From the NCBI GenBank assembly GCA_019058315.1, contig JAHPZH010000002.1:800001-864000 (forward strand): DNA of 64,000 bases. Direction: 5' to 3'. Both the position numbers and the translations under genes were made by a program. The notes below the pieces were generated by a model. It was given only the letters and a program-made list of their open reading frames with translations. It made no database searches and had not been told where the DNA came from. This stretch comes from Candidatus Helarchaeota archaeon (GTDB taxonomy: Archaea; Asgardarchaeota; Lokiarchaeia; Helarchaeales; RDOG01). Within the stretch, counting starts at the first letter, position 1. Every line of letters starts with the position of its first letter. Of the stretch, positions 1,466 through 58,528 are shown in pieces.

Positions 1466-3127
1466 ATGATTAAAGATATTTTTACGTTTATAGTCGGAGG
1501 TAAAGCTGGTGAAGGAATCAGAAAAGCTGGTGCGGTTGCAGGAAAGATTTTTTCAAAGAAAAGACGTTATATTTTTATTATGGATGATTATCCGAGTCTT
1601 ATCAGAGGAGGTCACAATTTCTCCGTTGTCAGTACCTCTGTTAGGAAAGTTTCAAGCCATTATATGAAAGCTGACTTAATAGTTGCTCTAGATAAAAGAA
1701 GCTATGATAATCATATTAAAAATCTTTCAGACCAAGGTATTATTGTATATAATTCTGATGATGAATTAAAAGATGTTAAAGGCGTTGGTGTACCGTTAAA
1801 ATCCAACGCAAAAAAATATCCATTCAAAGATTTGATTCTAGGTGTCGGTGCAGTTGCAATCCTTGCAGCTGCGATAGGTATTGATAAAAATGAATTAGGA
1901 AAAATAATTAAAGATCAATATCCCACTGGTATTGAGGATAATATAGAATATGCTATTACAATATATGATATAGTTCATCCTGAAATTGGAGGGAAATATC
2001 AACTCGAAGAAGGAAATCAAGAATTACCATTTTTTACTGGAAATGAGTTGATTGCCCTTGGTGCGGCAGCAGCAGGATTAGATGTTTATTTTGCTTACCC
2101 TATGACTCCTTCAACATCCATTCTTCATTATTTAGCTTCAAACGATAGGGATCTTGGTATAACTGTTGTACAACCCGAAAATGAAATAGCAGTTATTAAC
2201 ATGGCAATAGGCTCTACTTTTACTGGAGCAAGAACAATGATTGCGAGTAGTGGTGGTGGTTTTGCTCTTATGCAAGAAGCTTTATCTCTTGCAGGCATGG
2301 TTGAATCACCGATTTTATGCATTATTTCATCTAGACCTGGACCATCAACAGGTGTTCCTACTTATACTGAACAAGCTGATCTATTTTTTGCTCTTAATCA
2401 AGGTCATGGAGAATTTCCAAAAATAGTTGCATCACCAGGTTCTGTTGAAGAAACATTTTATCTTACTGCTGAATTACTATATTTGGCTTGGCAGTTTCAA
2501 ACACCGGCATTATTACTTACTGAAAAACACATGTCCGAAAGTAGAATGTCTGTAAAAATCGATCCGGAAAAAGTCAAGTGGGCTGAACCCTTAATGCATA
2601 AAGAAGGAGAATATAAAAGATATATTGACACTAATTCAGGAGTTTCACCTTTATTATTCCCACTGACGAAGAATATAAATAAATGGAATAGTTATGAACA
2701 TGATGAACTTGGGTTTACAACAGAAAATGCTGCCATGATTTCTAAAATGCATATAAAACGAAGAAAAAAGTTGGATAGTATTAAAAAGTTTATGGAAAAA
2801 ATTCATACAGTTAATATATTTGGTGAAAAAGGCCCTGTTATCTTTACTTACGGATCTACTACAATGAGTGTATTAGAAGCTTGTAAAGTGGGTGATATTG
2901 AAGCTCAAGTGGTTCAACCAATCTATTTAAGACCATTTCCAATATGGGAACTTGAAAAATTTAAAAATGAACGTACAATATGTGTAGAACTTAATTCATT
3001 TGGGCAACTGGCTACTATTCTTAAAAATGAGATTGGTATTAAACCCATTGAAGTAATTAAGAAATTCGATGGAAGACCTTTTGATCCGATTGAGTTATCA
3101 AAAAGAATAAAGGAGGTAGTCAGATAA
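1466..3127 (+). CDS. korA: 2-oxoacid:ferredoxin oxidoreductase alpha subunit (gamma-alpha fusion)
   Basis: GGxAGEG, DYPSLIRGGHN, YPMTPST, ENEIA, SSGGGFALMQE and RPGPSTGVPT motifs. Substrate specificity cannot be determined. Confidence 0.92.
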   Translation: MIKDIFTFIVGGKAGEGIRKAGAVAGKIFSKKRRYIFIMDDYPSLIRGGHNFSVVSTSVRKVSSHYMKADLIVALDKRSYDNHIKNLSDQGIIVYNSDDELKDVKGVGVPLKSNAKKYPFKDLILGVGAVAILAAAIGIDKNELGKIIKDQYPTGIEDNIEYAITIYDIVHPEIGGKYQLEEGNQELPFFTGNELIALGAAAAGLDVYFAYPMTPSTSILHYLASNDRDLGITVVQPENEIAVINMAIGSTFTGARTMIASSGGGFALMQEALSLAGMVESPILCIISSRPGPSTGVPTYTEQADLFFALNQGHGEFPKIVASPGSVEETFYLTAELLYLAWQFQTPALLLTEKHMSESRMSVKIDPEKVKWAEPLMHKEGEYKRYIDTNSGVSPLLFPLTKNINKWNSYEHDELGFTTENAAMISKMHIKRRKKLDSIKKFMEKIHTVNIFGEKGPVIFTYGSTTMSVLEACKVGDIEAQVVQPIYLRPFPIWELEKFKNERTICVELNSFGQLATILKNEIGIKPIEVIKKFDGRPFDPIELSKRIKEVVR

Positions 3128-3963
3128 TGGAAAGTTTAGGAACTTATGTGGAAAATACTTGGTGTCCAGGTTGTGGAAACTTTGGGATTCTTAATGCTTT
3201 TAAAAAAGCAGTTATAGCTCTAGAAAACAAGGGAATATCAAAAGAAAAGATCATAATTTCAGCCGGAATTGGATGTCACGCTAAAATATTTGATTATTTA
3301 AATTTAAGTGGACTATATTCTATTCATGGTCGGTCTATGGCGACAATTCAGGGAATAAAACTTGCGAATCCGGATCTTAAAGTTGTTGCTTTTGCTGGTG
3401 ATGGAGATGCTTTTGGTGAAGGTATAGCACATATGATATTTGCAGCAAAAAGAAATGCTGATATAACTGTTATTGTTCACGATAATGGGCGTTATAGCTT
3501 AACAACAGGACAATATACCCCATTAACTGAAAAAGGGTATAAAGGACCTTCAACACCTAGAGGTACAGTAGAGGATCCTCTTAACCCTTTATCGCTCCTC
3601 ATAGAAGCTGGTGCGACTTTTGTGGCCAGAGGATATTCGGGAAAAATACAACATCTTACTGATTTAATAACTCAAGCAATAGAGCATGAAGGATTTTCGT
3701 TTATTAATGTACTTCAACCATGTATTACGTACAATAATACGTATAAGAAATATAATAAACTAGTTGAGATATTAGATGAAACTCCTGCCACTATAGAGGA
3801 AGCTATTGCAATTTCTAAAAGAAAAGATACATTACCAATTGGAATTATATACAAAACTAAAAAGACATCATTTCATAAAAGATTATACGGGGATTATAAT
3901 CCTGTTTTAAATCGTATGTCCCGAGAGGTTAAGTTAAAAACAATACTAAAGTTACTAAAATAA
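3127..3963 (+). CDS. korB: 2-oxoacid:ferredoxin oxidoreductase beta subunit (TPP-binding)
   Basis: WCPGCG, GIGC, HGR, GDGD...DN TPP motif and QPC. TAATG coupling to the alpha gene. Confidence 0.93.
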   Translation: MESLGTYVENTWCPGCGNFGILNAFKKAVIALENKGISKEKIIISAGIGCHAKIFDYLNLSGLYSIHGRSMATIQGIKLANPDLKVVAFAGDGDAFGEGIAHMIFAAKRNADITVIVHDNGRYSLTTGQYTPLTEKGYKGPSTPRGTVEDPLNPLSLLIEAGATFVARGYSGKIQHLTDLITQAIEHEGFSFINVLQPCITYNNTYKKYNKLVEILDETPATIEEAIAISKRKDTLPIGIIYKTKKTSFHKRLYGDYNPVLNRMSREVKLKTILKLLK

Positions 3964-7606: not shown

Positions 7607-8767
7607 ATGTTAACAGAAATATTATTTCTTATCGCCGTTGGCGTAATGACTTTTTCAGTTTACTTTTTTGCTAAAGCCGCACTAAAAACCAGAAAATCAT
7701 TACCTTTAATTTATAAATTTATGATTGGCTTTTTAGTTATTAATGCTTTTACAATCGATTATGCATTTGCATATTTTTTTCTTTATTTAAATTATTTTAC
7801 ACCAGAAATATTCGTAACTTATCGATTCTTTTTTGAAATATTAATGGGTGTCGTTGGTTTCTATATTTTCTTCGACTCTAGGTTCAGAAAAATTAAATAT
7901 AACTATTTAAGTAAATTTCTCATTATTTTATTTGCTGTTGTCATTGGTGAAGCTTATTTAATCTATTTTTCCCAAACCCCCTTTCTTTTTAATGATATCG
8001 ACTTTTTTAAATTATTATTTGACTTTTATAACAATCATCCTATGTTATTCATAATTTTCGGATTACAAAAACTATATTCATTTATAGGTATTGTGATATT
8101 TTCTCTAAATATTTGTTTTATTGTATTAAAAAATAAAATTTATTCATTGAAGGCAAAAATACTTCTCACAATTGGGATTTTAACATTTATAGATATCCTT
8201 TTTACTATTCCAGTATGGGAAGCGTTCACTGGTGAAATCAATTTGGTATATATTCTTTGGATTTTTTGCTATTTCTTCATAATTTTCGCCAGATTAACAA
8301 AAATCAACTTTAAAGCAATTTCAGGAATACATGAAATTTTGATAACCTACAATGATGGAAGATTACTATATAATACAGGAAATGAACAGCTGGATCCTTT
8401 TTTAATAACTGGAGCATTATCTGCAATAATTTGTTTTTTGAAAGAAACTTTGCATAGCAAAAAGAAGGTGCGTTCAATTGATCATCAAGATAAAAAGATT
8501 CTATTCTCATATGGTGAATTCATTATTACAAGTGTAATTACCGATGAAGATACACATATTGTATATAATAAAGTGGAACAACTCACACATGACTTTGAAA
8601 AACAATTTTATGGTGTTTTAAAACATTGGAATGGGGAATTAACCACATTTTCTTCAGCTTGGTTCATTATTGATAATATTTTTCCAGTCAGTGGGTGGAT
8701 GCACAAAAAATCAGTTGAAGAATTCAAGGATAGCATTTTAAATAAAATTAAACAAATTGAAAAATAG
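7607..8767 (+). CDS. ~7-TM membrane protein with C-terminal longin-like cytoplasmic domain
   Basis: About seven hydrophobic segments, then IHEILITYNDGRLLY...LITGALSAI...IDHQDKKILFSYG...HWNGE, which matches the C-terminus of 24007..25629. Confidence 0.65.
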   Translation: MLTEILFLIAVGVMTFSVYFFAKAALKTRKSLPLIYKFMIGFLVINAFTIDYAFAYFFLYLNYFTPEIFVTYRFFFEILMGVVGFYIFFDSRFRKIKYNYLSKFLIILFAVVIGEAYLIYFSQTPFLFNDIDFFKLLFDFYNNHPMLFIIFGLQKLYSFIGIVIFSLNICFIVLKNKIYSLKAKILLTIGILTFIDILFTIPVWEAFTGEINLVYILWIFCYFFIIFARLTKINFKAISGIHEILITYNDGRLLYNTGNEQLDPFLITGALSAIICFLKETLHSKKKVRSIDHQDKKILFSYGEFIITSVITDEDTHIVYNKVEQLTHDFEKQFYGVLKHWNGELTTFSSAWFIIDNIFPVSGWMHKKSVEEFKDSILNKIKQIEK

Positions 8768-51044: not shown

Positions 51045-51063
51045 AAAATAGGGTGACTATAAA

Positions 51064-51804
51064 ATGCGTCGAATTCAAATTTCTAAAAGGCTTTTTTTTG
51101 AATACTTCATTAAAGGCGAATTTAAAGAGTTTAATGTAACTGTTCCATTATATAATAAATATTTTAGCGAGCTGGATAGAATAGATCTAAAAGGGGATAT
51201 GATTGAGGATAAATTTGGTAATGTGTCAATAAAATTCGATATGAAAACACCTAAAAGAACGTTTATAAAATATTTTTGTGATGTTCAAACTAAAAAACTC
51301 CCAGATTCAGTATTCGTTCCTGCTAAAGAGATAGTTGATGTATTTGAAGCACCAGAGCATCTAAAAATCGACAATATTTCCCAGAAAGCTTTAAAATCTG
51401 TAAAAGAAATTGGTGAGTTGAAATCCTATCTTCGAGACAATTTTAAATTTGAGAAGTGCGAATATGCCGCTAAATCAGTTGCGCTATTTGCTGAAAAAAA
51501 AGGAATAAAAGTAGCAGCAGCGAGCGGATTCCTCGATAATCATAAGGATGCTAAGGAAATTGCCTCCATAAAAGATCACAATAAAAAATTCAACTTTCAA
51601 AATCATCTTAAACACTATTGGGCTCTTTTAAAAACTCCCAAAGGTATCGAAGTCTGCGATCCGAAGGTTTTTGCTGAAGATGAACATAGATTTGTGGACC
51701 AATTGAATACAAATAACCCTATGACAGTGAATTGGGAAATTGAAGGAGAAAAAGAAACTGCAGAGATTAATTCCCATATATATACCGTAGTTATTTGGCG
51801 GTAA
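51064..51804 (+). CDS. Transglutaminase-like (papain-fold) protein
   Basis: KCEYAA...GIKVAAASGF...HYWA...VCDP give the C-H-D order. Confidence 0.55.
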   Translation: MRRIQISKRLFFEYFIKGEFKEFNVTVPLYNKYFSELDRIDLKGDMIEDKFGNVSIKFDMKTPKRTFIKYFCDVQTKKLPDSVFVPAKEIVDVFEAPEHLKIDNISQKALKSVKEIGELKSYLRDNFKFEKCEYAAKSVALFAEKKGIKVAAASGFLDNHKDAKEIASIKDHNKKFNFQNHLKHYWALLKTPKGIEVCDPKVFAEDEHRFVDQLNTNNPMTVNWEIEGEKETAEINSHIYTVVIWR

Positions 51805-51952
51805 TGAATAATATCAATAAATAATATGCTAAGTTAATAAAAATGGTACATTAAAATAAAAAATTTAAATTTCTTTTTACTTTTTAATCAAAAATTAGGA
51901 TATAAGACTTCTTTTATTGAACAGATTTAAAAAATATAATAATCTAGATTAC

Positions 51953-51973
51953 TAATGTATCATTGATACATTA
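51953..51973. promoter_or_regulatory. Perfect 21-bp palindrome TAATGTATCA-T-TGATACATTA (operator site A)
   Basis: 10-bp perfect arms upstream of 52061; related copies at 52687 and 56120. Confidence 0.65.
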
Positions 51974-52060
51974 TTATAGGATGCTTTTTAATTGTTAAAT
52001 TAAGGAATTATTCAAATATAAAAAGTAGTTTTTTTTTAGATCTTCGTCTGGCGGGAATAA

Positions 52061-52603
52061 ATGAAAGAATATGATGATTTAATTAAAAAAATTAAAGATT
52101 TAACAAAAATAGGCTCGAAAAAATCTTCAAAAGCAGAAATATCTCCAAAGGAAGTAAAACTTGAAAATCTGTTAAAGAATTTTGAAGATAAGCATTTCAT
52201 ACCTATTTCAATGATCTTTACAGAAGAAGGATTAGTCGTATCAACAGGAATAGAACCGGAAAACAAATGGCTAAATGTGGATATTGTCGGAGCATTTGGT
52301 GCGGAATTTTTAAGAATAATTAATACCTTTATAGAAGAAGTTTTAGCAAAACCACACACTGATCCAGATAGTAGAATATCAGAATATGTCGGAGATTCAA
52401 AAAGAATAACAAAAATTAAAACTAATTTTATTGAAACTGAAGTGGAAGGACAACCTATCGGAATTCTTTTCTGCCCTATCGAATCAATAGGTTTCTATTT
52501 AGCTATTATTATAAACCCTGCTCTTAAAAATATCGAGCTTCTTCAAAAAATTAAAGATGATCTGCCAAAATTGATAGATGATATTAAAAATGTGTTTGAA
52601 TAA
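52061..52603 (+). CDS. Roadblock/LC7-like (profilin-fold) protein
   Basis: Helix, then ISMIFTEEGLVVST, helix VGAFGAEFLRII, beta strands and a C-terminal helix. Confidence 0.55.
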   Translation: MKEYDDLIKKIKDLTKIGSKKSSKAEISPKEVKLENLLKNFEDKHFIPISMIFTEEGLVVSTGIEPENKWLNVDIVGAFGAEFLRIINTFIEEVLAKPHTDPDSRISEYVGDSKRITKIKTNFIETEVEGQPIGILFCPIESIGFYLAIIINPALKNIELLQKIKDDLPKLIDDIKNVFE

Positions 52604-52686
52604 TTAATTTCTCCATTTAATTTCCCTAAAAAAAATCTCCAACTCGCTCATTAATAAAAAATCACCTATAAATTCCACACATATTT

Positions 52687-52699
52687 ATATCACTGATCC
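52687..52699. promoter_or_regulatory. Degenerate operator site B (ATATCACTGATCC) upstream of trmB
   Basis: Matches GTATCAnTGATAC at 10 of 12 non-central positions and overlaps a TTTATAT box. Confidence 0.4.
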
Positions 52700-52812
52700 T
52701 TATTTTTCATTAAGTATTTAAAAAAGATAATATCAAAGGAGATATTCTCAAGGTTTAAGGCAGAGTGGGATGGTATTGTTTATAAACTCTTGAAATAAGA
52801 GGAATTGGGAAA

Positions 52813-53610
52813 TTGAAAGAAATTGTAGATAAATTGCATCAATTGGGGTTTAAAAAAAACGATGCAAAAGTATATTTTACATTATTACAACTAGGGGCAT
52901 CTAATCCTTCAGAAATCTCAAAAAAAACAAACATTGTACGAGCTCGAGTATATGATTCTTTAAAAAGACTTGAAAAAAAGGGATTCGTTGAAAGAGAAGC
53001 AGTGTCTCGAGCACCTGAATATTCAGCAGTTAATCCAGATCTAGTTTTTTCGAACATAAAGGGAGAGTTGACTAATAAATTAAACATATCAGAACAATTA
53101 TTAGAGTCCATAAAGGAAAAAGTTAAAATTAAACCAGAAAAGGGGACATGGGCAATTAAAGGAATACCCAAAATCAAATCTAAAATTGAAAATATTATTT
53201 CAAACACAAATAAAAGATTATTGGCTCTTATTACGCCTGATTACACTAAAACTTCTGAAAAATGGATTTATGATTTGCTTTTATTAAAAGCTAAATCTAA
53301 AATCGAAATTAATATTGGGATGAAAATAAAAAAAGATAACTTGCCAGATGTTAAAAAATTAATAGCTAAAAAGATAAAAGTTTATAATTGGCATTTTACT
53401 GAGGAAATTCCAATAGGTCTGTATACCTCTGATTCTGAAAATACTCTACTTACGGTTATTGGTAGCTGGAAGAAAATATATGAGCATAATATCGGATTTC
53501 TAATCCAAGGATCTCCTGCTCAACATAAAGGTTTTGAATTCCTTATAGATTGGTTTTTTGCTTCTTGTCAAAACGGTGAGGAAAGGGTAAATGAACTAGA
53601 AGGTGAATGA
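52813..53610 (+). CDS. TrmB-family transcriptional regulator
   Basis: LGFxxxxAKVYxxLL, EIS, RARVYDSLKRLEKKGFV and YSAVNP wHTH, followed by an effector domain. Confidence 0.92.
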   Translation: MKEIVDKLHQLGFKKNDAKVYFTLLQLGASNPSEISKKTNIVRARVYDSLKRLEKKGFVEREAVSRAPEYSAVNPDLVFSNIKGELTNKLNISEQLLESIKEKVKIKPEKGTWAIKGIPKIKSKIENIISNTNKRLLALITPDYTKTSEKWIYDLLLLKAKSKIEINIGMKIKKDNLPDVKKLIAKKIKVYNWHFTEEIPIGLYTSDSENTLLTVIGSWKKIYEHNIGFLIQGSPAQHKGFEFLIDWFFASCQNGEERVNELEGE

Positions 53611-54130
53611 AATTTCTGAAATAGCTATTAAAATTGTTGTTGTTGGTGATGAGGAAGTAGGAAAAACTTCAATAATCCTTAAATATGTTAAAAATCGCTT
53701 TACTGATGATTATAAACCTACTCTAGGCGCAGATTTTGCAGTAAAAGAACTGCGACTAAATGGAAAAATCGTAAAATTATATCTATGGGATATTGGAGGA
53801 AAAGATCAATTTAAAAATCTGCATAAATATTACTATGAAGGTGCAAATTTATTCATTTTAGTTTTCGACCTAACAAAATTAGAAACCTTTGAGAATGCAA
53901 TTAATGTTTGGATAGAAGACATAAGAAAAAATTACGATACTATACCAATTGTTTTAGTCGGTAATAAATTCGATTTGGAAAATGAAAGGCGTGTATCATT
54001 TGAACAAATCAAAGATTTAACCTTTGATTTTATTCCTCTTTCTCTCGAAACTTCCGCAAAAACAGGTCTTAATATTGAAGATTTGTTTAACAAAATTATT
54101 GAATTTTTAAAGACCATAGAAATTGAATAA
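53603..54130 (+). CDS. Rab-like small GTPase
   Basis: KIVVVGDEEVGKTS, YKPTLGADF, LWDIGGK, YYEGA, VGNKFDL and ETSAKTG. Overlaps trmB by 8 nt. Confidence 0.95.
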   Translation: MNEISEIAIKIVVVGDEEVGKTSIILKYVKNRFTDDYKPTLGADFAVKELRLNGKIVKLYLWDIGGKDQFKNLHKYYYEGANLFILVFDLTKLETFENAINVWIEDIRKNYDTIPIVLVGNKFDLENERRVSFEQIKDLTFDFIPLSLETSAKTGLNIEDLFNKIIEFLKTIEIE

Positions 54131-54137
54131 AATAATT

Positions 54138-54236
54138 AAAAAATTTGAACAAATAAAGAATTTGATCAATAAGATACTTGAATAAATAAAAAATCTGATC
54201 AAATAAAAAACGTGATCAGAAAGAAATAGATAAAAT
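54138..54236. repeat. Degenerate 16-17-bp tandem repeat array (~5-6 units, consensus AAAAAATTTGATCAAAT)
   Basis: Core TGA with G at 54147, 54164, 54180, 54197 and 54214. Confidence 0.7.
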
Positions 54237-54261
54237 TATTCTAACCTGGAACGTAATTAAT

Positions 54262-55302
54262 TTGATTAAGGGAATAATAATTACATCAAGTTCTGGTGTA
54301 TGCCTATTCTATAAAAGTTATGGCTGTGCCTTTGATAGTGAGATTCTTACCAATTTTTTGGTAGCAAATGATATATTCAGTGCTCAAATGATAGGAGAAT
54401 CGATGTATAGAATTGAAATGAAGGAAAAAACCCAATTCGTTTTTGAAAAAGATACCCAAACTAAATTAATTTTCGTAATAATTGCGGATTTAGAAGACCA
54501 ATTACATAATCTCCAATTAAAATTGAAACATATAAAGTACGCAATTCTTTCAAATTTTCCAGAAATACATTACAGCGAATCTGATGCTCTACCTAAATAT
54601 CATAAAATTCCCAATAAATTGAGAGTTGAAAAATTAATAGATCCAATAATTTTACCCCATTTTCCTTCTGGAAATTTAATAAATCTCATTAATTACTTTG
54701 GAATAAAAAATTCTGCATACATTTTTTCAAGCCTTCTTGCTAAGCAGAATATTCTAATTTTTGATGGAAATCAACAATTAATAGAAGAATTAATTATGAC
54801 TTTCCCTTTGTTAATTCCATTTCGTGAATTATTTATAATACAAAAAATTATCTCCGTAGATAAAATCGGACTTTTAGTTCCCTGGATTGAAAATTTCAAT
54901 CTTTCTCAGGCTCCAAATTGCTGGTGGATAATAGGATCAAATAAAAATGATTTTAAAAAAACTGAGAAAAGTTCTATTACTTTTATAGATGTTGAAAACA
55001 AAAGAATTATAAATGGGATAACCCCATCATTCTACGAACATAACTTAATTAAATCATTAAAAAATATTAAAGATCCTCAAATAGCACAATTAACATGGGC
55101 AAATAAAATGCATGATCTTATAAATACCGTTAAGAAATTATTAAATTTCAATCCAATCAATAAAGAAGTCCTGAAATTACATGATCTTCAACCTTACTTT
55201 CTCCCCCTCGTTGAAAAAATTGTTCAGAACGATTTTTCGGTGAATTTAGAAATTGAAAAACACTACTTTACTTCCATACTAAATAAAATGTTTGGAGATT
55301 AA
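54262..55302 (+). CDS. Longin + DENN-like domain protein (candidate Rab GEF)
   Basis: N-terminal longin pattern (IIITSSSGVCLF...FVFEKD...LIFVIIAD...LKHIK), then cDENN-like FGIKNxxxIFSSLLAKQNILIF...LLIPF...AP...IIG...FIDVE and a helical tail. Confidence 0.65.
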   Translation: MIKGIIITSSSGVCLFYKSYGCAFDSEILTNFLVANDIFSAQMIGESMYRIEMKEKTQFVFEKDTQTKLIFVIIADLEDQLHNLQLKLKHIKYAILSNFPEIHYSESDALPKYHKIPNKLRVEKLIDPIILPHFPSGNLINLINYFGIKNSAYIFSSLLAKQNILIFDGNQQLIEELIMTFPLLIPFRELFIIQKIISVDKIGLLVPWIENFNLSQAPNCWWIIGSNKNDFKKTEKSSITFIDVENKRIINGITPSFYEHNLIKSLKNIKDPQIAQLTWANKMHDLINTVKKLLNFNPINKEVLKLHDLQPYFLPLVEKIVQNDFSVNLEIEKHYFTSILNKMFGD

Positions 55303-55305
55303 TTC

Positions 55306-55977
55306 TTGGTTGATGCAACAATATTTTTAATTATTACTTCTGTATTTTCTTGTGCAATTTCTGGTGCTATAGCCGTTTTAATAATATTAAAGCGAGATCT
55401 CCGCCTTGAAACTGTTTTCTTTTCGCTTTTTTTGCTTGGGTCAGCTATTTATGTGTTCTTATATCTATTCTTGTTTGATGAGACATTAAAATACCTGCAT
55501 TACCCTCTCCAAACGATATTCATTAGTCTTGCAACATTTGGATTCTTTATGTTTGCATTTAGTATGGATAATGAGGGAGAAAACATTAAAAAAATGGCAA
55601 TTCCTTTAGCTATAATTTTATCAATTCTACCAGTGCTAAATTTTATCCTTACACCTTATACTTTTATTTTCGTTCCTTACGGTACTGAATTGAATGTAGA
55701 ACCTTGGTTCCTAACTTCAGTTGCCTTAGTTACTATAATATTTCTCAGCTATGCAATGTTCATAATCCTGAAACTAAGCTTTAAATCTCCTTCCCTAGAA
55801 GTCCGGAAAAAAATAAAAATTATCCTTTTTTGCCTTGTATTAATGGTAGTTTTTGGAACCACCTTTTTAGCTATCATCCCCGTTATTACTCAAATACATC
55901 AAATAAAACCTATAGGTTATTTCATCATTTCAGCATCAATGATCCTTATGACTTATGCATTCAGAAAAAGTGAATAA
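55306..55977 (+). CDS. Stand-alone 7-TM receptor-like protein (HisKA_7TM-like, no output domain)
   Basis: Seven hydrophobic segments, a beta-hairpin-like loop between TM4 and TM5, and basic VRKKIK before TM6. 3-bp gap after the DENN gene. Confidence 0.65.
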   Translation: MVDATIFLIITSVFSCAISGAIAVLIILKRDLRLETVFFSLFLLGSAIYVFLYLFLFDETLKYLHYPLQTIFISLATFGFFMFAFSMDNEGENIKKMAIPLAIILSILPVLNFILTPYTFIFVPYGTELNVEPWFLTSVALVTIIFLSYAMFIILKLSFKSPSLEVRKKIKIILFCLVLMVVFGTTFLAIIPVITQIHQIKPIGYFIISASMILMTYAFRKSE

Positions 55978-56119
55978 AGAAAATAGCCAATATAATAGTT
56001 TAGAATTCATTTTTAATTTAATTTTTGTAATTAATTTAACCTACTGACCTATTTTTAGTTTTAAATTTATTAATTTCTTCTTTTAATTTTTTATTTTTTT
56101 AAAAAATCAATTATAAATA

Positions 56120-56139
56120 TAATGTTCCATTGATACATA
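56120..56139. promoter_or_regulatory. Operator site C (TAATGTTCCATTGATACATA) immediately downstream of a TTATAAATA box
   Basis: 17 of 20 positions identical to site A. Confidence 0.55.
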
Positions 56140-56238
56140 TTCATAAATTTGAATTATTGTTAACATATTCTAATTATTTTTTTGTTAAATACAAAATCTT
56201 TCCTTATCCATATAAAAATAAAAAGGAGGATAAAAAAT

Positions 56239-57591
56239 TTGAAAAAAATAAAAATTATTTGGATGTCTCCAGAAATTGAAGATGAATATTCAAGTGGTGC
56301 AGCTAATCATAATAGATTATTTGTGGAATACTTTAATAAACACCCAGATGTGGAAGAAGTAGCAGTGGTCAGATGGCCTGTTCCAGTAGCTGGAAAATTT
56401 TTGCCTCAAATACAAAATTTTAATGGAATTAAATTATATACACCGCAAATTCACCTAAAATTAGATGAGGCACTTAAATCTTTCAAAAGGGAATCATATA
56501 AATTTTCAGAAAAAATAAAATTTGCATTTCTGCGATTGATCCTGAAATTAAAAGGAATGTCTACGTTTGATCCATCAACAATTAAAAAAGCTGGAGCTGT
56601 AGCCACATTTGCTGTTATGCTATTAACTTTCCAAAAACCATTCCCAAATCCCCTTCTGAAACAAATAGCTAAATGTATCGAACATTCTAAACCCGATATT
56701 ATCCAAAATCAAATGGAATTTATGGGGATATCGGGCTCATTGATCCGAGATAAAGTAAAAGGACACCTTATAACTCTCTACGAAATGGAAGGTGGACAAA
56801 GAGAAGTAGAAGAAGGAACTTTGGTTGGAGAAATTGCAAAAAGAAATAGTGAAGCTCTACAATGGGTTATAGAAAATGATAAAGTCGATAAATATATTCC
56901 AGTTTCGGAATCTGTAGAAAAAAATCTGATTAAAAATGGAGTGCCTAAAAATAAGATTCAAACAATATATTCGCCTATAAGAATAGATAAGTTCCCTGTG
57001 GTGGATAGAGAAACAGCAAGGAGAAAATTGGGTCTCCCTAAAAACAAAAAAATCATTGTTTCGGTTGGACGAATGACAGGGGGGAAGAGATTCGAAGATC
57101 TGGTTGAAATGCTAAGGAGATTCCCCGATGATGTAATTCTATATATCAAACAAAGTCGATGTATTTCTGATGATATCCTTGATACTTCTAAAGGGCTAAT
57201 ATCACTGATAAAGAAATATAAATTAAATGATAGGGTAATTATTAACGACACACCACTACCATATGAGCAAATGGCATATGTATATCAAGCTGCGGATGTT
57301 GGGGTATACCCATTTCTAGATGAACCGTTTGGGATGTGCGTCGCTGAAATTATGGCGTGTGCTAGACCAGTAATTGTTTATGATAGCGGATATCTTCCAA
57401 ATTTTATAAATAAAAATGGCTTCGTTGTTAAACCCTTAGATATTGAGGATCTATATCAAAAAACTAAATATCTGCTAGAAGATGGAATAGTAGTAAAGGA
57501 AATGGGCGAAAAAGGTAGAGAATTAGCTCAAAAATACGATATTAATATACTTGGAGAAAAATTACTTGATTTATATAAAGAATTTATGTAA
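56239..57591 (+). CDS. Glycosyltransferase family 4 (GT-B); start moved to TTG 56239
   Basis: PVSE, SVGRM...KR, YQAADV and EPFGMCVAE (Ex7E). AGGAGG precedes 56239. Confidence 0.9.
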   Translation: MKKIKIIWMSPEIEDEYSSGAANHNRLFVEYFNKHPDVEEVAVVRWPVPVAGKFLPQIQNFNGIKLYTPQIHLKLDEALKSFKRESYKFSEKIKFAFLRLILKLKGMSTFDPSTIKKAGAVATFAVMLLTFQKPFPNPLLKQIAKCIEHSKPDIIQNQMEFMGISGSLIRDKVKGHLITLYEMEGGQREVEEGTLVGEIAKRNSEALQWVIENDKVDKYIPVSESVEKNLIKNGVPKNKIQTIYSPIRIDKFPVVDRETARRKLGLPKNKKIIVSVGRMTGGKRFEDLVEMLRRFPDDVILYIKQSRCISDDILDTSKGLISLIKKYKLNDRVIINDTPLPYEQMAYVYQAADVGVYPFLDEPFGMCVAEIMACARPVIVYDSGYLPNFINKNGFVVKPLDIEDLYQKTKYLLEDGIVVKEMGEKGRELAQKYDINILGEKLLDLYKEFM

Positions 57592-57619
57592 AATCAATGG
57601 TTAATTTCGGAGAGATTAT

Positions 57620-58528
57620 ATGAGTCTAATTTTGGCTATAATTTTTGGTCTACTAGCTTATGCAGCATTAAATATCGGAATGGTTCTAGAAAAAAAAGGC
57701 GCAAGTACACTACCACAAATTGAAAACACTTCTGCTCTAGATAACCTTAAAAATTTTCTTGGTTGTAAAATCTGGGTAATTGGGGCATTAATAACTTTTT
57801 CACAGGTATTTCTCTTAATGATTGCTTTAACAATGGCTCCTCTATCATTAATCTCTCCCCTTTTCGGATTCGGTCTCGTTGTGCTGGCGTTCTTTTCGAA
57901 ACTATATTTAAACGAAGATATAAATAAAATAGAATATGCAGGTATAAGCATTACAATTTTCGGGATTATCTTATTAGGATTGTTTTCTAATCCTAATGAA
58001 ATAACTTATACAGTAAATGAAATTGCTGGATTATATTTTTCCCCTTTTTCTTTTATCTACTTTATAAGTATGATAATTTTTACGATAATACTTTGTATCT
58101 ATAGTATCTTAAATAATTATAAATTGGCAGCTATCATTTTCGGGTTTGCTAGCGGAATCGCAGGAGCTTTCGGAAATATTTTTATGAAAGGTGTATCTTC
58201 TGGTGTCGGTCAATTTACACTAGAATCAACTATAATTAATATACTTTGGATTTTGATGCTAATTTTCTCATTTATGGGAAGTGGGGTTTCAATGATGTTA
58301 CTCCAGATGGGATTTCAAAAAGGAAGAGCGGTTCTAGTGGCACCGATTTATTCTATCATCGCTATGCTCTATCCAACAATCAGCGGTATCATCATTCTTG
58401 GAGAATGGGCTGGACAGTTGTTCCTTAATATACTAATCCAATCTACTGGGATAATTATTATTGTATTAGGAATTATTATCTTGTCTTTCTATAATGAATT
58501 GAAAAAAGTAAAATCCGAAGAGTCTTGA
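57620..58528 (+). CDS. DMT-superfamily (NIPA-like) membrane transporter
   Basis: GMVLEK, WVIG, ALTMAPLSLISPL, LNE, Q.GFQKGRAVLVAP and GIIILGE. Confidence 0.8.
   Translation: MSLILAIIFGLLAYAALNIGMVLEKKGASTLPQIENTSALDNLKNFLGCKIWVIGALITFSQVFLLMIALTMAPLSLISPLFGFGLVVLAFFSKLYLNEDINKIEYAGISITIFGIILLGLFSNPNEITYTVNEIAGLYFSPFSFIYFISMIIFTIILCIYSILNNYKLAAIIFGFASGIAGAFGNIFMKGVSSGVGQFTLESTIINILWILMLIFSFMGSGVSMMLLQMGFQKGRAVLVAPIYSIIAMLYPTISGIIILGEWAGQLFLNILIQSTGIIIIVLGIIILSFYNELKKVKSEES

Follow-up and report, generated by a model that had tools for sequence, protein, structure and literature searches.

Rab-like GTPases and longin, roadblock and DENN proteins are encoded by the dozen in Asgard genomes, yet a partner or function can be assigned to almost none of them. 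How might a eukaryote-type GTPase switch of this kind become wired into a prokaryotic transcription circuit? A locus that could show this lies in a 64,000-nucleotide stretch of the genome of a Candidatus Helarchaeota archaeon (assembly GCA_019058315.1, contig JAHPZH010000002.1; G000:C5:800001-864000 in our numbering, where G000 is this genome of 5.8 Mb in 12 contigs). This whole stretch, which has a base composition of ~30% G+C (AT-rich), is called the window below. A preliminary description had proposed a self-contained circuit in which a seven-transmembrane (7TM) sensor controls a DENN-type guanine nucleotide exchange factor (GEF), its cognate Rab-like GTPase and a roadblock partner, coupled to or controlled by a TrmB regulator, with envelope glycosylation as a possible output. 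We find that the Rab/DENN pair was most simply inserted between trmB and the 7TM gene of an older triad, consisting of TrmB, the 7TM protein and a family 4 glycosyltransferase (GT4), in one subclade of four assemblies. The anatomy of the locus is well supported; the mechanism by which its parts would work together is a proposal drawn from sequence comparison. The features of the locus are as follows.

51956-51970, no strand: perfect palindrome TGTATCATTGATACA, putative TrmB-type operator
52061-52603, + strand: roadblock/LC7-fold protein, 180 aa (AlphaFold2 model, Foldseek)
52686-52700, no strand: degenerate operator copy TATATCACTGATCCT, 3 mismatches, core ATCAnTGAT
52813-53610, + strand: TrmB-family regulator, 265 aa (Pfam TrmB, 7e-21)
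53603-54130, + strand: Rab-like small GTPase, 175 aa (Pfam Ras, 7.5e-47)
54137-54218, no strand: 17-bp tandem array (Tandem Repeats Finder, TRF)
54262-55302, + strand: lng346, the name used here for the 346-aa longin plus probable DENN protein (fold and profile matches)
55306-55977, + strand: membrane protein with ~7 predicted TM segments, 223 aa (hydropathy)
56123-56137, no strand: operator copy TGTTCCATTGATACA, 2 mismatches
56239-57591 (reading frame opens at 56182), + strand: GT4-family (retaining) glycosyltransferase (Pfam Glycos_transf_1, 1.2e-24)
57620-58528, + strand: NIPA/DMT-superfamily transporter (Pfam Mg_trans_NIPA, 1e-15)

The seven open reading frames (ORFs) all lie on the + strand between 51.9 and 58.5 kb of the window, and their coordinates agree with the run of consecutive genes first described. 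The closest relatives of the window proteins are proteins of Helarchaeota metagenome-assembled genomes. Both of the close junctions in the preliminary description can be read directly in the sequence: the trmB stop codon TGA (53608-53610) and the GTG start of the GTPase gene (53603) produce an 8-nt overlap, and a gap of 3 nt separates the stop of lng346 (55302) from the TTG start of the 7TM gene (55306), which has GGAGA upstream. For GT4, the TTG at 56239, which follows GGAGG, is the more likely start, since alignments with the orthologues begin only near residue 21 of the longer ORF. The NIPA gene starts 28 nt past GT4, and the Pfam matches listed above bear out the assignments of these last two genes. 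A scan for sigma-70 promoters and terminators gave counts at the level of shuffled sequence, the consensus being uninformative for an archaeon.

Gene order and the older triad

Orthologous loci were found in three other Helarchaeales assemblies (L007, L008 and L040). The order TrmB-GTPase-lng346-7TM-GT4 is kept in all three, with protein identities to the window of 38-78%, and the flanks of these loci are otherwise unrelated to those of the window. These five genes of the proposed combination are thus conserved as a syntenic block beyond this genome, and the lack of shared gene order and of a roadblock or DENN fold that would have spoken against the preliminary description was not observed. 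The 8-nt overlap between trmB and the GTPase gene was called in all four loci, and the junction between the DENN-like and 7TM genes ranges from 3 to 23 nt. The GT4 orthologues are 51-56% identical, and a NIPA gene follows GT4 also in L008 and L040, at 70% and 87% identity, respectively.

TrmB, 7TM and GT4 genes are also found without a GTPase or lng346 gene, in at least five further assemblies (L054, L055, L056, L061 and L062), at identities to the window proteins of 25-30% for TrmB, 26-41% for 7TM and 35-45% for GT4. The order is TrmB-7TM-GT4 with 4-nt overlaps in L054 and 7TM-GT4-TrmB in L056, while GT4 is divergent from TrmB-7TM in L055, L061 and L062. Together, the three genes thus occur in at least nine Helarchaeales assemblies in several gene orders, and since their linkage survives these rearrangements, they belong together. 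The Rab/DENN pair is read as an insertion because relatives carry the other three genes without it. The older unit therefore consists of a transcription factor, a 7TM protein and a glycosyltransferase, which does not agree with the circuit "self-contained" about the GTPase that had been proposed. The triads that lack the GTPase pair represent natural "before" states.

In other Helarchaeales, the triads repeatedly have as neighbours small ORFs with only a HisKA domain, response regulators of a single domain, or class I SAM methyltransferases; the ORFs in question are L054:9016-9285, L061:6776-7072, L007:5912-6274, L056:1641-2051 and 2199-3197, and L062:1681-2040. Their presence leans towards a signalling role of the 7TM protein, but proves nothing.

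The L040 locus is a natural experiment on this block. The flanks in L040 are 80-88% identical to the window at the nucleotide level, namely the upstream 136-aa gene, the stretch from the trmB operator up to and including the GTPase gene, and NIPA together with the 3' end of GT4. Between them, the lng346-7TM-GT4 stretch (L040:7856-11945 versus window 54247-58498) is only ~66% identical or not detectably similar. Remnants in L040 include a 35-codon stump of the resident lng346, a C-terminal remnant of trmB and the 3' end of the resident GT4. Given the conserved flanks and the stumps left behind, a divergent DENN-7TM-GT4 cassette replaced the resident block in L040, moving as a unit.

The TrmB regulator and its putative operator

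The assignment of the 265-aa regulator to the TrmB family is secure: it scored 74.3 bits against PF01978, with a cut-off of 25.6, and has an N-terminal winged helix-turn-helix (HTH) with the recognition pair Y47-D48, the counterpart of Y50-D51 in Pfu TrmB (PMC4158304 Table 1). The PDB matches to TrmB (3qph, 2.6e-10) and TrmBL2 (1.2e-6) cover residues 3-137 only, and the NCBIfam match to TrmBL1 (5e-19) covers residues 2-138. Overall, the matches to TrmB, TrmBL1 and TrmBL2 end at ~137-188 and thus include only the DNA-binding and dimerisation part. No sugar-binding domain was detected in the C-terminal half, and the length of the protein is that of TrmBL2/3, types without that domain.

The palindrome TGTATCAnTGATACA is perfect before the roadblock gene, has 2 mismatches before GT4 and is degenerate before trmB. 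The preliminary description, which had all three genes sharing it, therefore held up for the first two, while the trmB copy in the window is a degenerate one. The TGTATCATTGATACA site lies 91 nt ahead of the roadblock gene, ~15 nt past a TATA-like A/T box; the TGTTCCATTGATACA site lies ~100 nt ahead of GT4, immediately past the TATA-like ATTATAAATATA; and the TATATCACTGATCCT site lies 113 nt ahead of trmB. A location just past a TATA-like box, as seen for two of the window sites, would be appropriate for a repressor. The counterparts of TATATCACTGATCCT in the trmB promoters of the orthologous loci, TATATCAGTGATACT (L040 6419) and TGTATCATTGAGACT (L007 6447), are better copies. Copies of the palindrome with ≤2 mismatches precede trmB in L007 and L040; GT4 is preceded by such a copy in the window, L007 (10170) and L008 (7095). 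A similar motif, TGTATCA[CG]TATTAC, is present in the divergent spacers between GT4 and trmB of L055 and L061.

Such sites are far more frequent than expected by chance. When the 9.5-kb region was subjected to Markov shuffling, none of 500 shuffles gave 2 sites at ≤2 mismatches. Each locus contains 2-4 sites, compared to 0.04-0.09 expected from shuffles, and the observed count was reached by none of 500 shuffles per locus in three loci and by 2 in L008. In the 5.8-Mb genome, there are 6 sites with ≤1 mismatch, all of them intergenic, and 5 of the 6 fall at C5:851956-916602, within 65 kb. The copies just past the end of the window (G000:C5:865774, 867981, 871947 and 916602; loci L058 and L059) occupy intergenic or divergent-promoter positions. 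One of them sits between the divergent genes for a PI-PLC-C1-like protein (1e-12) and a 1010-aa leucine-rich repeat (LRR) membrane protein, and the other genes beside these copies include several for small membrane proteins. This clustering of the best copies suggests a local TrmB regulon. The palindrome, in short, behaves as a conserved putative TrmB-type operator before trmB and GT4, a reading supported by its recurrence in the orthologous promoters. The local TrmB is the best candidate for the protein that binds it, since its own promoter carries the site in the orthologues.

The nearest characterized counterpart of this arrangement is the TrmBL1/Tgr system of the Thermococcales, in which the regulator recognizes the motif TGM, TATCAC-N5-GTGATA (PMC4158304). 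Both systems have a winged HTH with a Y-D pair, TATCA/TGATA half-sites, a site at or beside the B recognition element (BRE) and TATA box, and probable autoregulation. They differ in the spacing of the half-sites, which are separated by one central base here (TGTATCA-n-TGATACA) rather than by N5, and in the regulator itself, which at 265 aa and with its sugar-binding domain undetected is more like TrmBL2/3. The putative targets also differ: local membrane and glycosylation genes here, glycolysis genes throughout the genome in the Thermococcales.

Other TrmB-type genes of this genome have different surroundings. Several of the TrmB HTHs lie in open frames of 500-1700 aa, and the three other strong TrmB genes that were checked, all on contig C3, have no Ras, 7TM or GT4 neighbours. 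The TrmB-HTH match at C5:544906 has a Ras-like match ~1.1 kb away. A paralogue of the C-terminal TrmB domain at C1:26828-27715 was considered because a gene for a longin-GTPase fusion lies 3 kb off, but no direct link was found.

The GTPase, lng346 and the membrane protein

The identification of the 175-aa protein as Rab-like is borne out by its Pfam match and by the PDB, in which all 60 matches listed (the best 60 of 822) are to Rab/Ypt proteins, with E ~1e-32 and Rab35 among the best. The nucleotide-binding motifs are present (GDEEVGKT, T40, DIGG, NKFD and SAK), with G1, G4 and G5 intact and canonical. Switch II reads DIGGKD, in which Lys replaces the catalytic Gln of DTAGQE, and across the four orthologues this position is K/K/S/Q. 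Intrinsic hydrolysis may consequently be poor or dependent on a partner. The C-terminus (...KTIEIE) has no Cys for geranylgeranylation, as is also the case for other Asgard Rab-like proteins (PMC10933270). The whole genome contains ~79 Ras-like tblastn matches (E < 1e-5).

The adjacent protein, lng346, consists of a longin domain (residues 1-132), a putative cDENN region (~135-250) and a helical tail (257-344). Pfam gave only Fuz_longin_1, at E 0.014. In the AlphaFold2 model, made from a 6-row alignment, the pLDDT is ~70-80 over residues 1-132, and this part was superimposed by VIA-align on COPI zeta, VAMP7, AP sigma and Fuzzy with Z of 14-15.7 and a root-mean-square deviation of 2.0-2.6 Å over 114-126 aligned residues. 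The presence of an N-terminal longin domain in the model is beyond doubt.

The DENN part is probable, based on a convergence of matches that each fall below threshold. The family profile matched DENND10 (E 0.027) and SMCR8 (E 0.17) in one register in the PDB, with residues 134-189 of lng346 aligned to chain residues 154-208 of the 357-residue DENND10. Pfam DENN was found in the orthologue P0004 at 19.8 bits (E 8e-4), under the cut-off of 23.4, and in the orthologue P0005 at E 0.047 in the same register. DENND10 was the first-ranked Foldseek match of lng346, over the full length and with E 1e-4, but with a TM-score of only 0.28; FLCN ranked ninth. Language-model (Atlas) features of residues 115-346 resembled C9orf72-like, Folliculin_C, SMCR8_C and SPA/Avl9 clusters, at only ~0.8. 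The invariant residues of the family are concentrated in the putative cDENN region, where they include the motifs PFRE and P..CWW..G. Residues 257-344 are predicted to be helical, with pLDDT of 33-82. All told, lng346 is very probably a longin plus DENN-like protein that lies below the threshold for family membership. Of the original assignment, then, the longin domain stood, and the DENN domain is probable. A tri-longin arrangement, as in MON1 and Fuzzy, is less likely: an all-helical structure is predicted for the final ~90 residues, and Fuzzy/MON1 can be aligned with the first longin domain only.

Compared to DENND10/FAM45A (357 aa), lng346 has a similar size and the same predicted order of parts (longin, alpha/beta core, helical tail). 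Identity to DENND10/FAM45A and to the DENND1B-Rab35 complex is only ~9-15%, with no match past the curated threshold. The pair also differs from DENND1B-Rab35 in that the GTPase lacks the prenylation Cys and the catalytic Gln, and in that the genes are in a putative operon with a transcription factor. Prediction of the GTPase-lng346 complex, proposed in the preliminary description, gave a weak pass: the verdict was "weak support", with an ipSAE of 0.60 compared to 0.00 for the best control, at least 87% contact agreement between runs and a partner pLDDT of at least 79. Of 80 solved complexes used for calibration, 58 passed the mark, as did 2 of 110 mismatched pairs; passes at an ipSAE of 0.60 or under included only 7 of the 80, plus both of the passing mismatches. 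Since Rab-DENN complexes have already been solved, the pass may reflect likeness to them.

An exhaustive HMMER search of 1.8 billion representatives with lng346 gave 8 matches, of which only 2 were full length and 2 were fragments of the same family. With the single protein and its profile as queries, no full-length relatives were found in 400 phylum genomes (other than G000) and 161 class genomes, which yielded only the longin region or a ~250-aa family that matches residues 1-205. This family, at 25-30% identity to that part of lng346, is common in related Lokiarchaeia (family f6 genomes L011-L032, e.g., L012:1501-2244); its neighbours are unrelated, and no GTPase gene was adjacent in the loci inspected. 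A search of the whole genome with Pfam DENN gave nothing at E ≤ 1.

Some proteins combine similar parts differently. A 518-aa protein (L063:803-2359; G000:C3:1079802-1081358) has an N-terminal domain of ~145 residues joined to a TrmB winged HTH (4.2e-13), and the top-ranked result of a shape search with the lng346 model was a Thorarchaeota cluster (TM-score 0.42) whose 127 members are 425-aa proteins, with TrmB present in 52%. From these two observations, longin-like/TrmB fusions may exist. In the window itself, a 386-aa protein at 7607-8767 begins with a multi-TM region and ends in a longin/roadblock-like part. It was considered as a Rosetta stone for a 7TM-longin pairing and rejected: its membrane region shows no relationship to the 223-aa 7TM protein (hhalign probability 0.2), and the tail could not be aligned to lng346.

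The 223-aa protein has ~7 hydrophobic segments in a positive-inside pattern, an N-out/C-in orientation and no soluble domain, and both hydropathy and the positive-inside pattern agree in seven orthologues. Alignment of seven relatives, from a search that took in proteins of 122-413 residues, showed 16 invariant residues. No Pfam family was matched at E ≤ 0.1, and no PDB match was found with either sequence or profile. The assignment of seven TM segments is thus a prediction from hydropathy, and agrees with the earlier view of a 7TM protein that would have no output domain of its own. By language-model (Atlas) features, it is close (0.97) to clusters in which HisKA_7TM (PF16927) is present in 25% and 12% of the members, which serves as a lead only. 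For the GT4 protein, the best NCBIfam matches were the glycogen synthase, MshA and BshA types, all far under the cut-off.

Readings of the locus and its lineage-specific neighbours

Tentatively, and with somewhat less than even confidence, we propose that the locus encodes a Helarchaeales-specific, TrmB-controlled membrane module, in which the 7TM protein engages the DENN-like protein, thereby setting the state of the GTPase and modulating TrmB. The 7TM protein would be a membrane sensor or anchor, the DENN-like protein it engages would be the exchange factor of the Rab-like GTPase, and the state of the GTPase would modulate the co-translated TrmB. TrmB, in turn, would repress or derepress its own operon, GT4-NIPA and the neighbouring operator-bearing genes. 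In relatives without the Rab/DENN pair, the 7TM protein and TrmB would communicate directly. That the insertion of this pair into a 7TM-TrmB circuit produced a cascade running from a 7TM receptor through a DENN-type GEF and the Rab-like GTPase to TrmB is doubtful; if true, a small GTPase whose cognate GEF is defined by the operon would connect a membrane receptor with a direct output in transcription, that of envelope or lipid glycosylation genes.

Several observations weigh against the proposed module. The four assemblies that carry the Rab/DENN pair are fairly close relatives, and part of the synteny may therefore be inheritance alone. The cDENN region of lng346 was modelled poorly, with pLDDT <50 at residues 161-241; the window copy has no Pfam DENN match, and no DENN match in the family reaches the curated threshold. 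A search of 5.8 billion clusters together with the HMMER search gave only about five full-length members of the lng346 family, so that neither covariation nor deep profiles can be obtained. The K/K/S/Q variation in switch II of the GTPase would fit a GTPase-activating protein (GAP) as partner as well as it would a GEF. The genome has 26 TrmB-HTH matches, among which the local TrmB is a candidate binder of the palindrome. Finally, the 7TM and GT4 genes overlap by 4 nt in L054 and L056, which links the 7TM protein with the enzyme no less firmly than with signalling.

This last point also speaks for an alternative in which the GTPase pair works for the enzyme rather than the regulator: a membrane glycosylation complex would be formed by the 7TM protein and GT4, the GTPase with its DENN-like partner would recruit or activate GT4 at particular membrane sites, by analogy with effector recruitment by eukaryotic Rab and Arf proteins, and TrmB would be an ordinary effector-responsive regulator. 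Besides the overlaps, the two genes are only 12 nt apart in the L040 cassette, and DENN-7TM-GT4 was swapped there as one block. The operator-bearing neighbours are membrane and lipid genes (PI-PLC-C1, 1e-12; the LRR membrane protein), and sugar-related genes are classical TrmB targets (PMC4158304). However, in all four loci it is trmB, and not GT4, to which the GTPase gene is translationally coupled. In this genome, L007 and L008, GT4 forms a separate unit with a putative operator of its own, and the distance to the 7TM gene is 205-495 nt. The 7TM protein, moreover, resembles sensor-type regions by features only, and has no match to known membrane subunits of glycosylation systems. On balance, we consider it rather doubtful that the pair acts on the enzyme.

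It is unlikely that lng346 is instead a GAP, or a scaffold specific for one nucleotide state, in the manner of folliculin, SMCR8 and C9orf72. Such a role would suit the non-conserved switch II Gln (K/K/S/Q), since catalytic residues may come in trans, as well as the weak similarities to SMCR8, FLCN and C9orf72-like families, and Asgard longins related to GAP longins have been discussed (PMC12290439). However, the longin domain, the place of the arginine finger in FLCN-type GAPs, has no conserved Arg; the sole invariant Arg is R188, in the central PFRE motif. DENND10 is the best match in both sequence and fold, and the cDENN-like part, where the invariant residues are concentrated, is the face with which DENN GEFs bind Rabs.

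Least probable of all is the absence of any functional link, with a Rab-like/longin pair that landed in a TrmB-7TM-GT4 cluster and was kept by inheritance only: the genome is rich in Ras-like (~79) and longin genes, the insertion is seen in four assemblies only, and GTPase genes of MK-D1 are generally found outside the operons of their regulators (PMC10933270), but the junctions remain tight (8-nt overlap, 3-23 nt) despite 38-60% protein identity and unrelated flanks, L007 and L008 offer no spacer large enough for a promoter of the pair alone, and in the complex prediction the pair passed weakly, with controls that scored zero.

Under the proposed membrane module, the locus would name one GTPase, a DENN-like partner, a membrane protein and a DNA-binding regulator whose operator can be defined, with GT4-NIPA and the nearby membrane-protein genes as a plausible output. 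All of the parts are small proteins that could be expressed and assayed in vitro, so that the function of an Asgard small GTPase could become a question for the bench.

The nearest working analogy outside eukaryotes is provided by the actinobacterial conservons, which comprise the sensor kinase CvnA, the roadblock protein CvnB, the putative GEF CvnC and the Ras-like GTPase CvnD (PMC13621833, PMC13343842). Both bring together a membrane sensor, a Ras-like GTPase, its regulators and a transcriptional output in a prokaryotic operon, the sensor and the output being proposed ones for the locus described here. Only the GTPase and roadblock superfamilies are homologous, however; the 7TM protein has no kinase, a DENN-like protein takes the place of CvnC, and the DNA-binding regulator is encoded in the operon itself.

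Within the Asgard archaea, Liu et al. (bioRxiv 10.1101/2020.10.19.343400, Fig. 5b; Nature 2021) predicted an operon consisting of a LAMTOR1-like roadblock gene, a Rab-like gene and a DENN gene, which they proposed to be a GEF module; according to their text, it is conserved in most Asgard, and DENN paralogues are expanded in the Hel lineage. In both cases, a Rab-like gene adjoins a longin/DENN-type gene in an Asgard genome. In contrast to that operon, trmB here intervenes between the GTPase gene and the roadblock gene, which is not conserved and has a promoter of its own; the lng346 family is found in few Helarchaeales assemblies (about five) rather than in "most Asgard"; and the partners are TrmB, 7TM and GT4. 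The word "TrmB" occurs 0 times in the preprint text, which does not mention 7TM or GT4 partners either, and a full-text literature search found no paper joining Asgard small GTPases with TrmB. The novelty claimed for the combination must accordingly be divided: the roadblock-Rab-like-DENN operon was already published, while the TrmB-7TM-GT4 triad, its putative operator and the Rab/DENN insertion appear undescribed in the literature found.

Two elements of the preliminary description are lineage-specific. The first is the 17-bp array, which TRF confirmed at 54137-54218, within the 131 nt that separate the Rab-like gene from the DENN-like gene (4.9 copies, 72% matches, score 87, with TGATCA cores). 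The array is real, as a contig from a second study also carries it. No further copies were found in the whole genome, and it is missing from L007, L008 and L040, loci in which the lng346 gene overlaps the GTPase gene or directly adjoins it. The array is thus a lineage-specific insertion.

The second is the roadblock gene. Its 180-aa product had no match in Pfam, but the roadblock fold itself held up well: all 50 of the best Foldseek matches were roadblock domains (MglB, LAMTOR, the C-terminal domains of Rag proteins and the MK-D1 roadblock protein), with TM-scores by target of 0.66-0.69, and the language-model (Atlas) feature scores were 0.89-0.90. The AlphaFold2 model, with a mean pLDDT of only 60, has the topology alpha-beta-beta-alpha-beta-beta-beta-alpha (H29-45, E49-54, E59-62, H73-96, E122-128, E131-140, E144-151, H158-179). 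The model resembles MglB and the roadblock domains of LAMTOR and Rag, but differs from the MglA/MglB and Ragulator systems by an additional N-terminal helix, an internal insert of ~25 residues and the absence of a conserved linkage to a GTPase gene.

In the window, trmB plus a 209-nt spacer separates the roadblock gene from the GTPase gene, and no counterpart of the roadblock gene is present in L007, L008 or L040. It is a lineage-specific neighbour outside the conserved module, tied to it by the shared putative operator in this genome only. Only two relatives were found, a close homologue on a contig of 701 bp and a paralogue elsewhere in the genome; the latter (C1:526828) was considered as a GTPase partner and set aside, there being no adjacent GTPase gene. 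Compared to L040, the extra DNA at 51050-52676 of the window comprises most of a 246-aa ORF (51064-51804), the roadblock gene and its operator, while L040 has a ferredoxin-like gene and a zinc-ribbon gene at that place. These differences in gene content mark the region upstream of trmB as an indel hotspot.

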